The notes under the pieces are model-generated. The model worked only from the letters and a program-made list of their open reading frames with translations, did not search any database and had not been told where the DNA came from. From positions 600,001 through 632,000 of the forward strand of contig CP076101.2 of assembly GCA_015256915.3 (NCBI GenBank): a DNA stretch of 32,000 nucleotides, read 5' to 3'. The stretch's first letter is position 1; each line of letters begins with the position of its first letter. Source of the DNA: Candidatus Saccharimonas sp. GTDB taxonomy: Bacteria > Patescibacteriota > Saccharimonadia > Saccharimonadales > Saccharimonadaceae. This document shows positions 2,944 through 22,150 of the stretch, piece by piece. Made by a program: the position numbers and the translations under genes.

Positions 2944-4330
2944 TTATAACAAATGATACTGCTAAAATCAAATAAATATGTAGTGCATTTGGTAGTCCTG
3001 AAAAGAAAAACCATTGAACCAAAAACGCAGTTAAAATTGCCCAAATACACCTCTCTTCTCTAGATTTTAGAAAAATTCTGAATATTATTAACCCCCAAAT
3101 AATTAAACCAAAAATACCCAATTCTAATAAAATCGATAAAAATTCATTCTGAACAATTTCTGAACTGTTAGCTATCTGGTGCGTGGAATTTAAAATCGCC
3201 GTTCCAGAAGCCCCAGAACCAACTCCAAAGAATACAACAAAAGGGTTCGAAAGCCAAGTTTCTATTGCTAAATCCGACATTTTTGTGCGTTCATTGGTTG
3301 ATTTTTCAACATAACCATCAAACATTGCCTTTTTAGGTTTTTTTACAGTTTTTTCTGTTGGATCTTTCGAATTTAAACTACTACTCTCAATTTCTGGCTC
3401 TTTAATTTCTTGATTAATCTCTTTTTCAATTTTCGGCAATTTAATTTTTCCCAAACTTATTTGGTTTACACTTTTCGAAATTGAATCATAAAAACCATCA
3501 CTCACTCGTGGGTTTAACTCGGTAAAAATTGCATGAAAAATCATTCCACCCAAAAAACTTGAAACAATAAACCAGCCAGAAATTAAAAAATTTCGTAAAA
3601 TTACTTTTTTCGAAAATTTTTGGTTTACGAAAATCAAAACCAAAACTGCCAATAAAAGTGCAAAAATTGCCCCACGCGAAAGTGTTAAATATAAAGCAAA
3701 AAGCATAATCCAAACTGCTATTTTTTCTTTTTTTGTGGATTTTTTATTAAAAATTCTACTTATTAAAATTAAAATTGGCGCAAGAAGCATGCTTGCAAAA
3801 AATTGTGGTTCAATTGCAAAAACGCTTGGGCGCACAAATCCAAAACCTCGTGCACTGCACCCAGCGCAAAGACCCCAATCCGACCAAGTTCCATAAACAA
3901 CCTGAATTATTGCAAAGATTGACATTAAAAAAGCACTAAAAATAAAGTTTTTTATAATGCTTTCAAATAATTTTTTATTTTTCGAAAAACTCAAAATCGC
4001 CAAAAAATCAAGCCACAAAACTAACCAAACGCCAGAAACTAAAAAACTTCTCAATTGATTTTGCGAACTTAAAATCGTTAAAAAATTCCAAAAAACAAAA
4101 AATCCAGTAACCAAAACTGCGTTGTTCTTTAAAAGAGTTTTGCGGTTTTTAAAAATATTTTTAATACTAAAGAGTGCTAAAATTACAGCATAAATTAGAG
4201 CAATTGAAAATTCTAAATTTGCACCCGCCGCTTTACCAAAATTAAAATTTGGGTAATATGAAAACCAAACCATAAATGGCGCAAAAAATAATATTTTTTC
4301 AGCTAAACTAAGTTTTTTAAAATTTTTCAT
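2864..4330 (-). CDS. O-antigen ligase / Wzy_C family polytopic membrane protein
   Basis: About 10-12 predicted TM helices and a Wzy_C-type motif LTLSRGAIFALLLAVLVL, followed by a large charged extracytoplasmic loop. The ATG at 4330 (MKNFKKLSLAEK) gives a 14-nt overlap with the upstream GT4 stop and is more plausible than 4420. The 3' end overlaps the LCP start by 80 nt. Confidence 0.7.
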   Translation of the reverse strand: MKNFKKLSLAEKILFFAPFMVWFSYYPNFNFGKAAGANLEFSIALIYAVILALFSIKNIFKNRKTLLKNNAVLVTGFFVFWNFLTILSSQNQLRSFLVSGVWLVLWLDFLAILSFSKNKKLFESIIKNFIFSAFLMSIFAIIQVVYGTWSDWGLCAGCSARGFGFVRPSVFAIEPQFFASMLLAPILILISRIFNKKSTKKEKIAVWIMLFALYLTLSRGAIFALLLAVLVLIFVNQKFSKKVILRNFLISGWFIVSSFLGGMIFHAIFTELNPRVSDGFYDSISKSVNQISLGKIKLPKIEKEINQEIKEPEIESSSLNSKDPTEKTVKKPKKAMFDGYVEKSTNERTKMSDLAIETWLSNPFVVFFGVGSGASGTAILNSTHQIANSSEIVQNEFLSILLELGIFGLIIWGLIIFRIFLKSREERCIWAILTAFLVQWFFFSGLPNALHIYLILAVSFVIIERAYEKKSAINRWVHTKAAGRFFKS

Positions 4331-13919: not shown

Positions 13920-15647
13920 CTATTTATCTATTTTTAATATATATTTATTACCAACACCCGTAATTAATCCTCTTTCGAAATTCTGAGTCCATTTACCATC
14001 ATTCCATGCTTCATTCTTTAACGGTAAGCCGAGTTTATCTTTTTGCGTATCATTTAATGAATTATAGAATTTAAATACATCACCCTGAATTTCCCAATAT
14101 CCTAAATTATCGTTTCCTATGATATCACCTTTCTCGTAGTGTTGTATCTTATAACCTTTTTCTTCAATAACATCACTAGTAGGAAATCCTAAAGCACCTT
14201 TTTCATTACCAATCTTATTCCAGCGTTCGCGTATTTTACCATAACTTTCATGATATCCAGATTTTGGACTACCTATAATAAAACCATTCTGATATTTCTG
14301 GAACCATCCACCTTGAATAGTTGAAAATTCTTGTGTTATAGGTAATCCCATCTTACCATGTTCATACCCTAATTGAGCATACTTATCTCTAATTAAACCA
14401 ATACTTTCCCAATATCCAGTACTATCACTTCCAATTATGAAACCATTCTGATATTTTTGCGCACGACCATTATTGATAGTGTTAAAATATCCAGATAGTG
14501 GTAATCCCATCTTACCATGTTCATACCCTAGCTCAGAATATCTTTGTCTAATTTTACCATAGTTTTCCCAATATCCAGTACTATCACTTCCAACTATGAA
14601 ACCATTTTTAAACCTTTGGAATATTGATTTATCGGTCTTGAAAAATTCAGAATCTACGTCACCAAGATATCCTTTTTCACCACCTAGCTCAATGTATCTT
14701 TCATATATTCCACTGTGTATTCTTTTACTTTCAAGAGTAGAGCCAAATAGCCGGTTAAAGAACATAAAGAAATTACGATTTCCATAAGCTCCACAATGTG
14801 AAGTTCCCGGATAATTTGCTAGTGCTGAATCATTCGGAACATACGGTGTATAAATATATAAACTTAAAGTTGCAACATTCTCAATATTAACACGTTTTGT
14901 ACCGCAAGCTGGATTTGGTGAATATTGAATATTATTCCATCCAAGCTTTAGCGAATAGCCACCATCTTTATGATGGTCTTTATAATATTTGAGCTGCCAA
15001 GCTGCCAAAGTCATTTGTTTATAAAAACCAGCTTTCGAATCCGCACAAGCAGCAGAAAATCCAGGTCCAGAATCTGGGCAAGCATAGCCCATTGCATATT
15101 TATATTGAGTTTTTACTGGCCAATTATCATCTAGTAAATTGAGAGATTCTTTCTTCAGTAAAACCAACAAAACTTGCGGGTTAATTCCATATTTCTGAGC
15201 CGCATCATAAATAATCTGTGCCGCCGAAATTCCACCTTCGAAAGATCCGCCACCTTTTTCGAAAGAAGTTTCGCCAGTATTTGGGTTTTCGTGATAATTA
15301 TTTATACATACATATGGAGGTTTATGCCAATAATTTGAATTTTGTGCAGCAGCAAATTGAGCAGCGGTTCTACCATCATTTTTCCCAGAAGGTCCAGTAC
15401 CCCAGGTATCACAACTACCAATTTGCTTATTTAAAAAGCTTTGGATTTGCTGCACGTTCATTGCATCTTTATTATAAAAAATACTGTCGTCAATAATTCG
15501 TCCAGGATTGAAATCGGTTGCTTTAACAGCGTTAGAAAGATTTCTAAGTACAGCTAAAGAACTAAAAATAATAACCGCCACAACTGGCGCACCAATTAAA
15601 ATTGATTTTTTAAATTTTCTACTTCTCGATTGTAAAACTTTGAGCAT
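13920..15647 (-). CDS. Secreted or membrane-anchored cell-wall protein: N-terminal conserved Cys-containing domain (possible lysozyme/transglycosylase-like) plus five LGFP-type repeats
   Basis: N-terminal signal-anchor (SILIGAPVVAVIIFSSLAVL). Motif AAQIIYDAAQKYGINPQVLLVLLKKESLNL. C-terminal half has five ~53-aa repeats of the form IRxxYxxLGxExGxxGLPxxxxF...QKYQNGFIIGS (LGFP repeat pattern). SD AGGAAGGT lies 4 nt before the ATG. Confidence 0.7.
   Translation of the reverse strand: MLKVLQSRSRKFKKSILIGAPVVAVIIFSSLAVLRNLSNAVKATDFNPGRIIDDSIFYNKDAMNVQQIQSFLNKQIGSCDTWGTGPSGKNDGRTAAQFAAAQNSNYWHKPPYVCINNYHENPNTGETSFEKGGGSFEGGISAAQIIYDAAQKYGINPQVLLVLLKKESLNLLDDNWPVKTQYKYAMGYACPDSGPGFSAACADSKAGFYKQMTLAAWQLKYYKDHHKDGGYSLKLGWNNIQYSPNPACGTKRVNIENVATLSLYIYTPYVPNDSALANYPGTSHCGAYGNRNFFMFFNRLFGSTLESKRIHSGIYERYIELGGEKGYLGDVDSEFFKTDKSIFQRFKNGFIVGSDSTGYWENYGKIRQRYSELGYEHGKMGLPLSGYFNTINNGRAQKYQNGFIIGSDSTGYWESIGLIRDKYAQLGYEHGKMGLPITQEFSTIQGGWFQKYQNGFIIGSPKSGYHESYGKIRERWNKIGNEKGALGFPTSDVIEEKGYKIQHYEKGDIIGNDNLGYWEIQGDVFKFYNSLNDTQKDKLGLPLKNEAWNDGKWTQNFERGLITGVGNKYILKIDK
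14341..14658 (-). repeat. Intragenic tandem repeat, period 159 bp (two best-conserved LGFP repeat units)
   Basis: ggtaatcccatcttaccatgttcataccct occurs at 14341 and again at 14500. cccaatatccagtactatcacttccaa also recurs one period apart. More diverged units flank these two. Confidence 0.7.
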
Positions 15648-16221
15648 CCGACCTTCCTTCTTGCTTTTGTTTTGAATTTTTATAAGTTGTTATTGCTGTC
15701 CATTTTCCAGTTTTAAATTCACTATCACTAATTTTTTTCGAAACTGCCTTACAATATTTATTATTTGGGCTCTCTAAAATTTCAGTTGAAAGTTCAATTT
15801 TAGTTCCATCAGAATGCGTTAGAGTATATGAACATTTACCATTCCCATCATCATAAAGGAGCCCTGAAATCTGCCCGGCCACACGAACTGTACCATCTTC
15901 AACTTGCACGGTTGTATAAGTTGGAAAATTTGTATAACCCGAGGATTCAACAGTTCCTTCAGCACGATCAGTATTATTATTTTTAGTTTTCGAATTAATG
16001 ATTTCCTTTGCAGCTTCTTGCTTTTTAGTTTCTTCAGGTTTTTTCGAATCTTCTTTTTTCTCTTCAACTTTTGAAGTATTTTCTTCTTTTTTCTCATTAT
16101 TTTTTTGAGAATTTGAATTTACCCACCAGAAAATTCCACCAGCACCAGCGACCAGCAAAATTACAAATGCAGCAAAAATAATAGTTTTAGTTTTTTTAGT
16201 ATTTTGTGTGTTTATTTTCAT
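15619..16221 (-). CDS. Hypothetical membrane-anchored protein: TM helix, K/E-rich linker, ~110-aa C-terminal domain
   Basis: TIIFAAFVILLVAGAGGIFWWV anchor, then a low-complexity KKEENTSKVEEKKEDSKKPEETKKQE linker and a Cys-containing globular C-terminus. Overlaps the start of the LGFP-protein gene by 29 nt (likely coupled translation). I recognise no family. Confidence 0.55.
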   Translation of the reverse strand: MKINTQNTKKTKTIIFAAFVILLVAGAGGIFWWVNSNSQKNNEKKEENTSKVEEKKEDSKKPEETKKQEAAKEIINSKTKNNNTDRAEGTVESSGYTNFPTYTTVQVEDGTVRVAGQISGLLYDDGNGKCSYTLTHSDGTKIELSTEILESPNNKYCKAVSKKISDSEFKTGKWTAITTYKNSKQKQEGRSDAQSFTIEK

Positions 16222-16315: not shown

Positions 16316-17281
16316 ATGAAGAAACTCATTACAATCATGATTCCAGCTTATAATGAAGAAAAAGCTCTACCAAAACTTTTCGAAAGGCTCAACCTTTTAG
16401 CAAAAAACACTTCAAAATATGATTTTGAATTTCTTTTTATTAATGACGGTTCAAAAGATAAAACAATGGAAATTATTAGGAGTGAAAGCCAAAAAGATTC
16501 ACGAATTTCCTACATTAATTTAAGCCGAAATTTTGGAAAAGAAAATGCAATGCTGGCAGGTTTTGATTATGCAAAAGGAGATGCATTAGTAATTATTGAT
16601 GCAGATCTACAAGATCCACCAGAGTTAATTCCCGCAATGATCAACCTTTGGGAAGAAGGTTTTGATGATGTTTATGCTAAACGTGAATCTCGTGAGGGTG
16701 AAACTTGGCTTAAAAAGCAAACTTCGAAATGGTTCTACAGTATACTTGATAAAATTTCACAAATTGAAATTCAACGCGACACTGGTGATTTTCGACTTCT
16801 CGACCGCCGTGCAGTCGAAGCCCTAAAAACTCTCCGCGAAACTAACCGTTATACCAAAGGAATGTTCTCTTGGGTTGGTTTTCGAAAGAAAGAGATTACT
16901 TATAAACGTGATGCGCGTGTAGCTGGCGAAACAAAATGGAATTATGCAAAACTTTTTAATCTCGCAATTGAAGGAATCACCAGCTTTACTGTTGCGCCAC
17001 TTCGCATTGCTACAATTACAGGATTTTTCATCTCAATTGCTGCATTTTTATGGATTGCTTTTTTGCTAATTCGCCCACTTTTTGGCGTTCCAACTGGTGA
17101 CGGTTATACTTCAATTATGTCAGTAATTCTTTTTCTTGGCGGGATTCAGCTCCTCTCAATTGGAATTTTAGGCGAATATATTGGTCGAATTTTCATCGAA
17201 AGCAAAAATCGCCCCGTTTATCTAGCGCAAGAAATCAAGGAATTCAACCATGAAAAATCTACTAAAAAAGCTAAAAAATAG
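16316..17281 (+). CDS. Polyprenyl-phosphate glycosyltransferase, GT2 (GtrB/CsbB/DPM1-like)
   Basis: MKKLITIMIPAYNEEKALP...FLFINDGSKDKT...NFGKENAMLAGFDYAKGDALVIIDADLQDPPELI, plus two C-terminal TM helices. The ATG at 16316 is preferred over the TTG at 16286 because TGCTATAAT (16298-16306) lies inside the longer ORF. Confidence 0.88.
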   Translation: MKKLITIMIPAYNEEKALPKLFERLNLLAKNTSKYDFEFLFINDGSKDKTMEIIRSESQKDSRISYINLSRNFGKENAMLAGFDYAKGDALVIIDADLQDPPELIPAMINLWEEGFDDVYAKRESREGETWLKKQTSKWFYSILDKISQIEIQRDTGDFRLLDRRAVEALKTLRETNRYTKGMFSWVGFRKKEITYKRDARVAGETKWNYAKLFNLAIEGITSFTVAPLRIATITGFFISIAAFLWIAFLLIRPLFGVPTGDGYTSIMSVILFLGGIQLLSIGILGEYIGRIFIESKNRPVYLAQEIKEFNHEKSTKKAKK

Positions 17282-17681
17282 CCAAGAATTTTGGTTTGCA
17301 GCAATTGGCGGGTTGAATACAATTCTAGATTTTGTAATTCTTTTTGGACTAACTTCTCTTGGAATTAGCTCTTTAACTGCAAACATTTTCTCAACTGGGA
17401 TTACTTTTATAAATAGCTTTAGTTTAAATAAGAAAATCACTTTTAAATCAGTTTCAAAAAGCAAAAAAAAACTTGTTCGAGAAATGGCACTTTTTATTAT
17501 TGTAACACTTTTTGGACTTTGGGTTATTCAAGGTGTGATAATTTTTCTAACTTTACCATTTTTCGAAAGTATTTTAAAAAATCCAAAAATATCGCTTTTA
17601 ATTTCAAAACTTATCGCTACTGTCTTCAGCTTAATCTGGAACTTTATCCTTTACAAAAAAGTTGTCTTCAATAAAGATTAA
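17250..17681 (+). CDS. GtrA-like small membrane protein (putative polyprenyl-P-sugar flippase)
   Basis: 143 aa with four TM helices. The N-terminus FWFAAIGGLNTILDFVILFGL and C-terminus WNFILYKKVVF are typical of the GtrA family. Overlaps the GtrB-like gene by 32 nt. Confidence 0.8.
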   Translation: MKNLLKKLKNSQEFWFAAIGGLNTILDFVILFGLTSLGISSLTANIFSTGITFINSFSLNKKITFKSVSKSKKKLVREMALFIIVTLFGLWVIQGVIIFLTLPFFESILKNPKISLLISKLIATVFSLIWNFILYKKVVFNKD

Positions 17682-19186: not shown

Positions 19187-19209
19187 ATCTATTATTATAC
19201 TACTTTCTA

Positions 19210-19563
19210 CTACTTATTACAATAAAAATCAGCCTCTTTAAAGATATCAATTATAGCTTCTTTAAGTTCTTCATGCGGAATATCTTTTATGCTTTTATGA
19301 AAAATCATCACTACAACATCAAAAGTGCCATCAATTTTTGGTAGTTCATGGCGAATAATTTCATAAACTCGCCGGCGAATTCGATTTCGGCCAACCGCGC
19401 TCTTTAAAACCTTTTTCGAAACCACAACCGCAAAACGTGAATCTTTACGGCGTGGATTTTGTGCAAATTTCACGGTAATTTTTTGTGTACGAACTGAAGT
19501 TCCGTTTGAATAAACATAACGCAAGCTACCATGACCATGAAATCTATTTTTATAAGCTAACAT
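19210..19563 (-). CDS. rnpA: Ribonuclease P protein component
   Basis: 117 aa, basic, with the RNR motif region VVSKKVLKSAVGRNRIRRRVYEIIR. Located upstream of yidC. No rpmH ORF lies in the 78 nt upstream. Confidence 0.85.
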   Translation of the reverse strand: MLAYKNRFHGHGSLRYVYSNGTSVRTQKITVKFAQNPRRKDSRFAVVVSKKVLKSAVGRNRIRRRVYEIIRHELPKIDGTFDVVVMIFHKSIKDIPHEELKEAIIDIFKEADFYCNK

Positions 19564-19641: not shown

Positions 19642-20266
19642 TTATAGATTAACAATAACTTTTTTATTAGACCAAAATGATGGTTGATAATGGAGTTTTA
19701 GTGAAGAACCAGCAGGGACTTCAAAAATTATCGAACCGCTCTTTTTACCACCTTTTACTAAATCACCAGAACCAAGACTATCTGGTAGGCTATAAGTTTG
19801 TCCATCAGCGCTTTCAGCGGCTCCGTTAGAATCTTCAGCCTTAAATTCAAAAAACATTATAGTTCATCTCTGTTTCAGATTTATTTTCAATCTTTACTGA
19901 AACTTTTACATATTCTTTGCCATCTTTTGGTTTTAAATAAGCATTTCCAGAATTCCAGTTTCGCTCAACCTTTTCAACGGTCAATTCTTTTCCATCGAAC
20001 GCAATTATATCACCAACATTGAATTCAGTTTTTTCTTCTTTTTTAGACTCACCTTTTTGAGTTTGAGATGATCCGTTTGATCCAGAATTTTTATTTTCAC
20101 CAACTTTTTCAGGCTGTTTATATTGGCTACCAATAGCAATAATTACAACTATAACAATCCAAAACCAAGCTTTTTTATAGAATGGCTTCTCAGATTTAGT
20201 TTTCGAAGATATTCTATTTAGCTGCTTGCTATCATTAGATTCTACAGTTGATTTTTCTTCTTTCAT
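19642..20266 (-). pseudogene. DUF4352-like membrane-anchored surface protein gene, interrupted by a frameshift in a T6 (A6 on + strand) run
   Basis: ORFs 19847..20266 (TM anchor, S/G/K-rich linker, NVGDIIAFDGKELTVEKVERNW...KEYVKVSVKIENKSETEMNYNVF) and 19642..19857 (FEFKAEDSNG...GDLVKGGKKSGSIIFEVPAGSSLKLHYQP) together form one DUF4352-type beta-sandwich domain. Removing one A from 19849-19854 fuses them in frame (...NYNVFEFKAED...). Confidence 0.75.
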
Positions 20267-20304
20267 TATAACTCCCTTTATAAAATATTAATTATTACAT
20301 AATC

Positions 20305-20335
20305 ATTTTACCCCCCCCCCGATATATTTTGTCAA
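20305..20335 (-). promoter_or_regulatory. Promoter TTGACA -19 nt- TAAAAT whose spacer contains a G10 homopolymer
   Basis: The minus strand reads TTGACAaaatatatcGGGGGGGGGGTAAAATgattatgtaataattaatattttataaAGGGAGttataATG (ATG = 20266). -35 = 20330-20335, -10 = 20305-20310. Confidence 0.6.
20311..20320. repeat. C10/G10 homopolymer tract
   Basis: cccccccccc on the + strand. It is the only long G/C homopolymer I saw in this AT-rich window. Confidence 0.95.
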
Positions 20336-20348
20336 GTATAAAAATAAA

Positions 20349-20374
20349 AAAAGAGGCTTTCAAAAACCTCTTTT
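20349..20374 (-). terminator. Rho-independent terminator of lepA
   Basis: Minus strand AAAAGAGG-tttttgaaag-CCTCTTTT followed by TTTATTTT. The 5' arm overlaps the TAA stop. Confidence 0.65.
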
Positions 20375-21599
20375 AATCTCGTTTTAGCATTACAGTAAAA
20401 GCTTCGCTCGGAATTTCAACATTTCCAAATTTCTTCATTCGCTTTTTACCACGTTTTTGTTTAGCAAGCAGTTTTTTCTTTCGAGAAACATCGCCACCGT
20501 AAAGATAACCAGTCACGTCTTTTCGATAAGCCGAAATATTCTCGCGCGCGATAAACTTTCCGCCAATCGCCGCTTGAATCGCCACCTGGAAATTCTGTCG
20601 CGGAATAACTTCTTTCAATTTTGCAGTAATTTCACGACCCATTCGTACACTTTCCGAACGGTGACACATCACCGAAAGCGCATCAACCATTTCGCCCGCA
20701 ACATAAAAATCCACACGCACCAAATCTTCTACCAAATAATCCCAAAGTTCATAATTAAATGAACCATAACCAGATGTAACGCTTTTCAATTGATCATAAA
20801 AATCGGTCAAAAGGTTAGCGAGTGGTGCTTCGAAAGAGACCAAAACACGCTCATCAATATAGCTTAAATTCTTTTGCAAACCGCGTTTCGAAACAATCAG
20901 CTGGATTACAGCACCAACATAATCTTTTGGTACCACAATTTCACCTTTAATCCACGGCTCACGAATTTCAGAAATTTTTGTTTGATCAGGTAAATCAGCA
21001 GCACTTTTAATATCTAATTCTTCACCTGTTGTCAAAATAACATGATAGTCGGTTGAAGGATTAGTTACCACCAAATCTAAGTCGTATTCACGTTCCAAAC
21101 GCTCGCGAACAATATCCATATGAAGAAGACCAAGAAAGCCAATTCGCACGCCAAAACCTAAAACTGGTGAATTCTCTGGTTCGAATTGAAGTGCAGAATC
21201 ACTTAAACTTAATTTTTCAACCGCATCTTTCAAATCTTGATAATCTTCATTTGAAACCGGGAAAAACCCAGCATAAACGAACGGCTGAACGTTTTGATAA
21301 CCAGGTAGAGGCTCACTAGCAGGATTTTTCGAAAGAGTTACAGTATCACCAACTTTTGCCTCACGGGTAGTTTTTAAGTTAGTCACAATGTATCCAATCT
21401 CGCCCGCACTCATTTTATCGTATGGTGTCATTTTTGGCTGAAGCTTACCAATTTCTAGCGCCAAACCTTTTGAATCTGTCGCCATCATTTTAATTTCTTC
21501 ACCTTTTTTTAGCTCACCCGAAAAAATACGCACGTATAAAATTACGCCACGGTAATCATCATAATAACTATCAAAAATTAAAGCTTTTAGTGGTTTCAT
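20373..21599 (-). CDS. lepA: Elongation factor 4 (LepA), C-terminal 408 aa (domains II-V and LepA C-terminal domain), a separate ORF
   Basis: KPLKALIFDSYYDDYRGVILYVRIFSGELKKGEEI...GFLGLLHMDIVRERLEREYDLDLVVT...LLAKQKRGKKRMK. The ATG overlaps the stop of the G-domain ORF (TAATG), with AAGGAG 5 nt upstream. Confidence 0.93.
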   Translation of the reverse strand: MKPLKALIFDSYYDDYRGVILYVRIFSGELKKGEEIKMMATDSKGLALEIGKLQPKMTPYDKMSAGEIGYIVTNLKTTREAKVGDTVTLSKNPASEPLPGYQNVQPFVYAGFFPVSNEDYQDLKDAVEKLSLSDSALQFEPENSPVLGFGVRIGFLGLLHMDIVRERLEREYDLDLVVTNPSTDYHVILTTGEELDIKSAADLPDQTKISEIREPWIKGEIVVPKDYVGAVIQLIVSKRGLQKNLSYIDERVLVSFEAPLANLLTDFYDQLKSVTSGYGSFNYELWDYLVEDLVRVDFYVAGEMVDALSVMCHRSESVRMGREITAKLKEVIPRQNFQVAIQAAIGGKFIARENISAYRKDVTGYLYGGDVSRKKKLLAKQKRGKKRMKKFGNVEIPSEAFTVMLKRD

Positions 21600-22150
21600 T
21601 AAATCTCCTTTGGTGCAGGAATTTTCTCAATCACCGCATTTAAAACTTCTTCAACACCCATTCCTGTTTTGGCTGAAATATGTAAAATTTCACTTTCATC
21701 ACAACCTAAAAGATTAATAACTTCTTTCGAAACTCGCGGAATATCTGCTGCGGGTAAATCAATTTTATTCAAAACTGGAATAATTTTTAAATCTGCCGCC
21801 ATTGCAAGATAAACATTAGCCAAAGTTTGTGCTTGAATCCCTTGCGAAGCATCAACCACTAAAATTGCACCTTCACAAGCTTGAAGAGAACGCGAAACTT
21901 CATAGGAAAAGTCAACATGTCCAGGAGTGTCAATTAAATTCAATTCTATCCCCTGCCAATTCATTGTTACAGGCGCAAGTTTAATTGTAATTCCTTTTTC
22001 GCGCTCCAAATCCATCGAGTCTAAAAGCTGCGACTTCATATCACGTTTTTGAACAGTACCGGTAATTTCCATCATTCGGTCAGCTAAGGTCGACTTACCG
22101 TGATCAATATGAGCAATAATACAAAAATTTCTAATCTTTTCTAAATTCAT
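21599..22150 (-). CDS. lepA: Elongation factor 4 (LepA), N-terminal 183-aa GTPase domain, a separate ORF
   Basis: [20 protein letters not shown] (G1), DTPGHVDF (G3), NKIDL (G4), ending ...[11 protein letters not shown]. Confidence 0.93.

Follow-up and report, generated by a model that had tools for sequence, protein, structure and literature searches.

A length-variable poly-G tract in the promoter spacer of a DUF4352 membrane-protein gene of Saccharibacteria, a probable contingency locus

Introduction

Control of a gene by a repeat of changing length within its promoter is a mechanism of a textbook kind, with porA, opc, hif, vlp and fim as examples. In Bordetella pertussis, fim2 and fim3 have a C stretch upstream of the -10 box, an over-long spacing and a phase-variable surface structure as their product, and the fim promoters combine the C stretch with dependence on an activator. 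In Mycoplasma hyorhinis, the spacer of the vlp promoters reportedly contains poly(A), and the promoter is said to be active only at particular lengths of this run. For porA of Neisseria meningitidis, expression is high with 11G, 2-fold lower with 10G and about 13-fold lower with 9G (PMC3639595). A change of promoter is also behind phage resistance by Mpr of Mycobacterium smegmatis, which has a transmembrane segment at residues 33–50 and a DUF4352 domain at residues 83–211 (10.64898/2026.02.27.708680, PMC12596739). Resistance to phages D29 and L5 requires overexpression of Mpr, a protein toxic in large amounts, and in spontaneous resistant mutants IS6120 supplies a -35 element to mpr (PMC12596739; 10.64898/2026.02.27.708680).

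Here we analyze a stretch of 32,000 nucleotides of a Candidatus Saccharimonas chromosome (referred to below as the window), in which a G tract lies in the promoter spacer of a gene for a membrane-anchored DUF4352 protein. As in N. meningitidis porA and opc, it is a G/C mononucleotide tract of 9–12 between the -35 and -10 boxes and the product is predicted to be located at the surface; the output of porA is graded by single-unit changes. Unlike porA, the host is a monoderm, ultrasmall saccharibacterial epibiont, the product is a transmembrane-anchored DUF4352 protein and not a porin, and the sampled spacers are 18–21 nt, whereas the common state of porA is the optimum of 17 nt. What the locus has in common with vlp is a host-associated bacterium with a reduced genome and a homopolymer that lies between the -35 and -10 boxes of a gene for a surface protein. 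However, the tract is poly(G) and not poly(A), it precedes a single conserved gene rather than a size-variable multigene lipoprotein family, and there is no sign of antigenic diversification (dN/dS 0.17). With fim2 and fim3 the locus shares an over-long spacing and, ahead of the -10 box, a long G/C homopolymer, but fim is BvgA-dependent and lacks a consensus -35, whereas the -35 box is perfect here and no activator is evident.

A first-pass annotation of this DNA had regarded phase-variable surface expression as undescribed for this kind of reduced-genome organism. With regard to Saccharibacteria and other bacteria of the Candidate Phyla Radiation (CPR) this view stands, as the literature searched contained no report of a contingency locus of this kind for them; for reduced genomes in general it does not, vlp of M. 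hyorhinis reportedly being a classical case.

Results

Anatomy of the promoter and rarity of the tract

The features of the locus are as follows (how each was identified is given in parentheses).

20349..20374, minus strand: intrinsic terminator of lepA, a stem-loop with a T run, immediately upstream of the promoter (terminator scan)
20330..20335, minus strand: -35 hexamer TTGACA, perfect consensus (sequence)
20321..20329, minus strand: fixed part of the spacer, 9 nt, AAATATATC (sequence)
20311..20320, minus strand: G10 homopolymer (C10 on the plus strand), the hypermutable part of the spacer (sequence)
20305..20310, minus strand: -10 hexamer TAAAAT (sequence)
20272..20277, minus strand: Shine-Dalgarno sequence AGGGAG, 5 nt before the ATG (sequence)
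20264..20266, minus strand: ATG start of the DUF4352 gene (sequence)
19847..20266, minus strand: 5' part of the DUF4352 gene, an ORF of 139 aa that covers the cytoplasmic tail, the transmembrane segment, the linker and the beginning of the beta-sandwich (ORF call)
19849..19854, minus strand: T6 run where all relatives have T5 (or T4C), which shifts the frame by +1 (alignment)
19642..19857, minus strand: 3' part of the DUF4352 gene, an ORF of 71 aa in a shifted frame (ORF call)

When the sequence was re-read, all promoter elements and the G10 were found where the first-pass annotation had placed them. TTGACA and TAAAAT are separated by 19 nt, 10 of which are G, and TAAAAT lies 38 nt from the ATG, with AGGGAG within this interval and a predicted 5' UTR of about 30 nt. 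Since the tract abuts the -10 box, position -14 is always a G. With 10 uninterrupted residues it exceeds the length of about 8 from which a G/C mononucleotide run can slip.

The claimed rarity of such a tract was also borne out. The window has a GC content of 32.5%, its only other G/C runs of at least 5 nt are two C5 runs, and from base composition one would expect 0.0017 G/C runs of at least 10 nt per 32 kb. Besides the tract, no G/C run of at least 7 nt was present in about 280 kb of related saccharibacterial loci; the census, covering the 32-kb window and these loci, contained one tract. Elsewhere the window consists of core chromosome, including an envelope-polysaccharide cluster, tilS, pilB, recX and recA, and scans of it for Rfam families and tRNAs gave no match.

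Four other gene-proximal promoters of the window, those of ftsH, lepA, rnpA and a gene for a 200-aa protein, have spacers of 17 nt, which suggests that the usual spacing rule holds in this organism. By this rule the 19-nt spacer of G10 would be a low state, as had been proposed.

Tract length differs between strains

We compared the tract among members of the species group, using 46 metagenome assemblies that are independent of one another and each come from a different sample; their promoters were retrieved via RnpA, both LepA parts, Jag and two DUF4352 variants. In the assembled contigs, the length of the tract was G9 in 2, G10 in 19, G11 in 16 and G12 in 9 of them, so that the postulated heterogeneity between strains does exist. 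Differing samples include SAMEA10740187 with G9, SAMEA10740166 with G12 and SAMEA10740474 with G11 (assemblies ERZ28634340, ERZ28634481 and ERZ28634870). Besides, tract length differed in 5 of 7 groups of samples that were identical over 930 nt of flanking sequence (for example, 9, 10, 10, 11 and 11), suggesting that changes in the tract far outpace the accumulation of point mutations. The same spread was seen in two assembly pipelines, and repeated retrieval of one contig always gave the same length. As a control, A/T runs of at least 6 nt across the same loci were invariant in 39 of 40 cases; these runs are 6–7 nt long, the region being without any homopolymer equal to the tract in length. 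The sole varying run was the T7/T6 of the terminator (20346-20352), which had two states linked to haplotype. A pattern scan of JGI metagenomes, unbiased in that any 10–22 nt were allowed at the tract position, added G9 (3), G10 (3), G11, G12 and one G6.

The tract itself is not an assembly artefact, a possibility raised earlier and rejected here: it occupied the same place in long contigs from more than 60 independent assemblies, which came from several studies and two pipelines. A different question is whether its length variation is real. The tract could be a fixed element of a deliberately weak promoter, for example as part of an over-long spacer with a -14 G or as a protein-binding G run, with G9–G12 reflecting sequencing or assembly noise. 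The length distribution is indeed narrow and bell-shaped around G10–11, and poly-G is error-prone, such that Illumina or PCR slippage could account for part of the ±1 variation. Four contigs (L015, L019, L021 and L104) were broken at or near the tract, with ends within about 40 nt of it and, at one of these ends, poly-C junk in place of the tract, and the long-read assemblies with the BNJ prefix, which are riddled with homopolymer indels and were therefore discounted, compressed it to G4–G6. Contig breaks are, on the other hand, what is expected when reads disagree at the tract. In addition, four length classes occurred at substantial frequencies with the same spread in both pipelines, repeated retrievals agreed, and the other homopolymers of these loci were stable. 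Across lineages, tract lengths ranged from 5 to 12 with invariant hexamers, which argues against a constraint on length such as a binding site or a fixed spacer would impose. We therefore consider a fixed element improbable, although it is the best surviving of the alternatives.

Spacing states present in the population

G9–G12 correspond to spacers of 18–21 nt, the modal ones being 19–20 nt, and all exceed the 17-nt optimum. Loss of two G residues had been predicted to create an optimal G8 allele of 17 nt. This allele was never seen: neither G7 nor G8 occurred in about 60 assemblies of the species group. The absence of the G8 optimum is odd for a switch that is used both ways. Short tracts were found in L017 (G5), L078 (G6) and L105 (G6), and their spacers were 15–16 nt, not 17 nt. 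In L017 the G5 is accompanied by two extra A's, giving a spacer of 16 nt, and the gene is intact; in L078 the spacer is 15 nt and the gene is also frameshifted. L017 had at first seemed to form a compensatory pair with L029 (A6 + G5 and A5 + G6, respectively, both 16 nt), but the pair was dropped as L029 is one of the long-read BNJ assemblies, and only L017 is credible.

The idea of a phase switch was thus supported in its length polymorphism but not in a balanced alternation of ON and OFF, as only supra-optimal states were sampled. A dial over the low range, or an ON state that is rarely used, fits these states better, and judged from the spacings the locus would be better described as a graded dial than as one that is cleanly ON or OFF, with G9 as the strongest of the common states. 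States stronger still (G8 or shorter) may be read as rare or transient, costly, or never in the majority. No association was found between tract length and knock-outs of the gene, which occurred at G6, G10, G11 and G12.

Conservation of the promoter module

None of the 15 lineage representatives departed from TTGACA, not even those whose homologue has only 59–70% protein identity and other neighbors. A -10 box was present in all lineages as TAAAAT, TATAAT or TAGAAT, and a purine-rich Shine-Dalgarno sequence was kept at the same place in all of them. The filler between the -35 box and the tract was kept at a length of 8–10 nt while its sequence varied (AAGTATATC, AAATGGTCT, AAAGCGATA, AATTTTTCA and AACTCTAC), and the flanks of the lineage representatives were unrelated to each other. 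In total, TTGACA, 8–10 nt, a G tract and TAnAAT preceded the gene in about 20 species and in five genomic contexts:

between lepA and rnpA
between a Cu-ATPase gene and rnpA
between dnaA-rpmH and aspS (L030, Ca. Nanogingivalis, and L100)
between pilB and rnpA (L101)
between ftsK and rpsF (L102 and L103)

The conserved hexamers uphold the earlier description of the tract as part of the spacer of a predicted sigma-70-type promoter before a membrane-anchored DUF4352 gene. Homologues of 59–70% identity in other contexts had G11, G11 and G11. In L102 and L103, G7 and a filler of 10 nt add up to exactly 17 nt between TTGACA and TATAAT, which makes a full consensus promoter. Homologues of at most 50% identity were without the tract. 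For example, a scan of viral contigs found only a homologue of 50% identity that lies between ruvB and ruvA, on a contig of bacterial appearance, and one of 39% identity among phage-like genes, and the absence of the tract from these two distant homologues marks a limit of the distribution of the module. As dnaA adjoins the module in L030 and L100, a link with oriC was considered and rejected, because the module is also found in unrelated contexts. The window itself has a monotonic GC skew without a turn and contains no dnaA.

This conservation bears on a second alternative, namely that the tract is a neutral mutational hot spot which varies without regulatory use while the gene is transcribed from elsewhere. 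Two candidate elements speak for it. The best-spaced match of the region, TTGAAA-17-TATACT (20363-20335), would place the tract in the 5' UTR, and an extended -10 element, TGTAATAAT, lies 9 nt downstream of TAAAAT. Neither was accepted as a real promoter element: the TTGAAA/TATACT pair, which overlaps the terminator, is missing in seven loci of other lineages (L018, L024, L026, L030, L100, L101 and L102), and the TG of TGTAATAAT is not conserved. In addition, a neutral G10 should decay at 32% GC, yet an uninterrupted tract lies between the same hexamers in about 20 species, down to 59–70% protein identity and in five contexts. A neutral hot spot is therefore slightly less probable than a fixed element.

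Least probable is an activator-dependent long-spacer promoter, of MerR type or similar to Bordetella fim, in which the tract would tune the response to a regulator: the modal 19–20 nt fall in the length class of MerR-type promoters, which have 19–20 bp spacers, but the dyad operator that goes with this length is absent (AAATATATC plus Gn has no dyad symmetry), the filler differs in sequence from lineage to lineage, and none of the five contexts includes a linked regulator gene.

The DUF4352 gene is conserved but repeatedly lost

The presence of T6 in place of T5 splits the gene of the window into ORFs of 139 aa and 71 aa, and by its sequence this frameshift inactivates the gene in this strain, so that the predicted switch drives a broken gene here. 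The broken state of the ORF was missed in the first-pass annotation. As lepA nearby seemed to be frameshifted too, an error-prone assembly of the window was considered and rejected: lepA is split in all relatives, so that its split is real, and the same T6 allele recurs in an independent Logan assembly (L039). Intact relatives, and the window copy once repaired, encode 207 aa.

Outside this strain the gene appeared to be well maintained. The exact RnpA protein encoded downstream was found in 455 blocks of a public assembly collection, and the ten longest contigs bearing it had the gene order ftsH-murJ-lepA-DUF4352-rnpA-yidC-jag. Among GTDB species representatives, about 20 species-level genomes were involved, and the group consisted of uncultured Candidatus Saccharimonas/Saccharibacteria MAGs such as UMGS1907; going by the source studies, we take the human gut to be the source of these relatives. 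When 26 distinct alleles were compared in pairs, dN/dS was 0.17 for the whole gene and 0.10 for the DUF4352 domain, which is nearly invariant across lineages, and these alleles gave no sign of diversifying selection. The gene is thus conserved under purifying selection and functional in the long term. This observation is at odds with the previous view of an inserted accessory antigen, as the gene occurs in about 20 species and five contexts with a dN/dS of 0.17 and without diversifying selection. At the same time, it was knocked out independently several times: by +1 T in the window and L039, by nonsense mutations at codon 57 in L015 and codon 9 in L071, and by a 2-nt deletion in L078. Recurrent knock-outs together with purifying selection fit fluctuating selection and a function that is valuable only sometimes.

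Architecture and relatives of the protein

The reconstructed protein matched PF11611 (DUF4352) with an E-value of 3.7e-24 and 85.8 bits (gathering cut-off 25.9), residues 82–202 covering profile positions 1–121 of 122. A Lys-rich cytoplasmic tail of about 30 residues is followed by a transmembrane segment (residues ~33–48), a low-complexity linker rich in Ser, Lys and Glu, and a beta-sandwich. An AF2 model had a pLDDT of about 90 for residues 76–207, and its fold matched the extracytoplasmic Gram-positive lipoproteins YjhA, YxkC and YcdA, secreted MPT63, and phage DUF4352/DUF5067 lipoproteins in BFVD. We predict from these models an N-in/C-out signal-anchor transmembrane segment with an extracytoplasmic beta-sandwich.

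Further relatives were found in phages. The best PHROGs family was phrog_806 (2.7e-31, function unknown), with weaker matches to superinfection-exclusion families, among them the 'Sie-like' phrog_8545 (2.6e-6), and tblastn detected phage homologues of 29–42% identity. The homologues of phages iLp84 and BL3 are flanked by the repressor and integrase genes, which is the classical sie position. A homologue on a contig with phage-like genes (L109) shares the anchor motif KKPxYKKAWFW. No PADLOC defence model matched the protein. In sequence and fold the protein is similar to the Sie-like DUF4352/DUF5067 membrane proteins and lipoproteins of prophages; unlike their genes, this gene is chromosomal and lies among the core genes lepA and rnpA-yidC-jag.

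Judged from its size and architecture (transmembrane segment ~33–48 and DUF4352 at 82–202), the protein also resembles Mpr (MSMEG_1236), the sole characterised protein built in this way. However, with about 30 residues its cytoplasmic N-terminus is short, and the protein cannot be assumed to share the nuclease or ppGp activity reported for Mpr. Moreover, the promoter change in M. smegmatis is an IS insertion and not a reversible repeat. We regard the likeness to Mpr as a lead and not as a claim of membership.

Discussion

The variation of the tract within otherwise identical haplotypes and its retention between invariant hexamers suggest a functional contingency locus of the porA/opc/vlp type that operates through the promoter spacer, a reading for which we estimate a probability of roughly 70%. 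In such a locus, slipped-strand mispairing would add G residues to the tract or remove them, and each step would alter how far TTGACA and TAAAAT are apart and how they are rotated relative to each other. The result would be a heritable and reversible change in promoter strength. As all spacers of G9–G12 are longer than the optimum, the G10 state should give low expression, and the order of levels would be more for G9, low for G10 and least for G11–12; the -14 G provided by the tract may keep a basal activity.

What would be adjusted stochastically in this way is a costly, dose-dependent function at the cell surface. The Mpr/Sie-like architecture points to phage exclusion as the function that is probably tuned, but phage exclusion as the purpose of the locus is an argument by analogy, which we put forward tentatively and with more doubt than confidence. 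The complete scenario is more doubtful still. It would have the tract act as a reversible poly-G dial for a dose-dependent, costly, Mpr/Sie-like anti-phage protein, with G10–12 as a cheap low state and with loss of G residues giving rise to resistant high expressers under phage attack. What is new here, as the mechanism is a familiar one, is the phylum, the family to which the controlled gene belongs, a unit of tract and promoter that is deeply conserved, and a spacing that stays above the optimum.

For metagenomics, the locus carries a practical warning: assemblies break at such a tract or report a compressed length, as the G4–G6 of long-read assemblies illustrate. The tract is also a strain-resolved marker that is already present in public metagenomes and can be related to phage load, to the bacterial host and to the human host. 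The phage biology of Saccharibacteria has barely been explored, and the architecture that the protein shares with Mpr and the prophage Sie-like proteins makes this locus a testable candidate for expression-tuned phage defence. If that were true, slippage would achieve here what IS-mediated reconstitution of a promoter does in M. smegmatis, and the locus would be the first contingency locus in the CPR and the first phase-variable DUF4352 defence. Saccharibacteria, epibionts of ultrasmall size that are for the most part uncultivated, have few regulators; if the tract is a conserved slippage dial, they would use the contingency-locus strategy of classical host-adapted bacteria.

lepA and the envelope protein genes of the window

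We found that lepA, the neighbor of the DUF4352 gene, is split into two open reading frames, both in the window and in the related loci from public assemblies numbered L001–L010, L025 and L040–L069. These and the other features of the window considered here are as follows.

20373-22150, minus strand, lepA, split into two ORFs
21599-22150, minus strand, lepA part 1, GTPase domain, 183 aa
20373-21599, minus strand, lepA part 2, remainder of the protein, 408 aa
17463-17471, plus strand, A9 run inside a gtrA-like ORF (17250-17681)
13920-16221, minus strand, two more genes for envelope proteins, downstream of jag and gtrA

The two lepA ORFs overlap at TAATG, with the frame change in the window at CCAAAGGAG, and the split was found in all related short-read assemblies. 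In L025, both parts share one frame and are separated by a stop codon. Rather than an error, the interruption represents either a true gene split or a site of recoding. The A9 run, which codes for Lys-Lys-Lys in the gtrA-like ORF, is the longest A/T homopolymer of the window. Of the two envelope proteins, one (200 aa) has an N-terminal anchor and a Lys/Glu-rich linker, the same layout as in the DUF4352 protein, and its gene is preceded by a TTGAAA-17-TAAAAT promoter; the other, a 575-aa LGFP-repeat protein, overlaps this gene by 29 nt. Neither gene contained a repeat tract.

Variable surroundings of the DUF4352 gene

In some strains (L001, L005, L044, L049, L050 and L058), a type I restriction-modification island of ~6 kb, hsdR-hsdM-hsdS, was located between rnpA and yidC, with the insertion point corresponding to ~19190-19210 of the window, which lacks this island. 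The hsdS product was 412–420 aa, its length varying by strain. Also, some strains and species (L024, L026, L057/L067 and L065) carried a ~3 kb insertion with a cupredoxin gene and a copper P-type ATPase between lepA and the G-tract promoter; the DUF4352 gene kept its promoter module. A DUF4352 homologue (39% identity) was present on an IMG/VR viral contig (L109, IMGVR_UViG_3300006149_000738, positions 2974-3549). It had the KKPxYKKAWFW anchor motif in common with the Saccharibacteria protein, lacked a G tract, and lay among putative phage-like genes (RusA-like, late regulator) identified by eye.

The G tract in public assemblies

Contig L021 began with ~70 nt of poly-C/CA junk (positions 1-75) exactly where the G tract was expected, and contigs L019, L015 and L104 ended within ~40 nt of the tract; assemblies are therefore prone to break at this site. 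The BNJ* contigs (L029/L070, L075, L079 and L082), which are apparently long-read, gave the tract as G4–G6, and their DUF4352 gene contained many homopolymer indels. These short tracts are the result of homopolymer compression, and could be misread as “locked” alleles.
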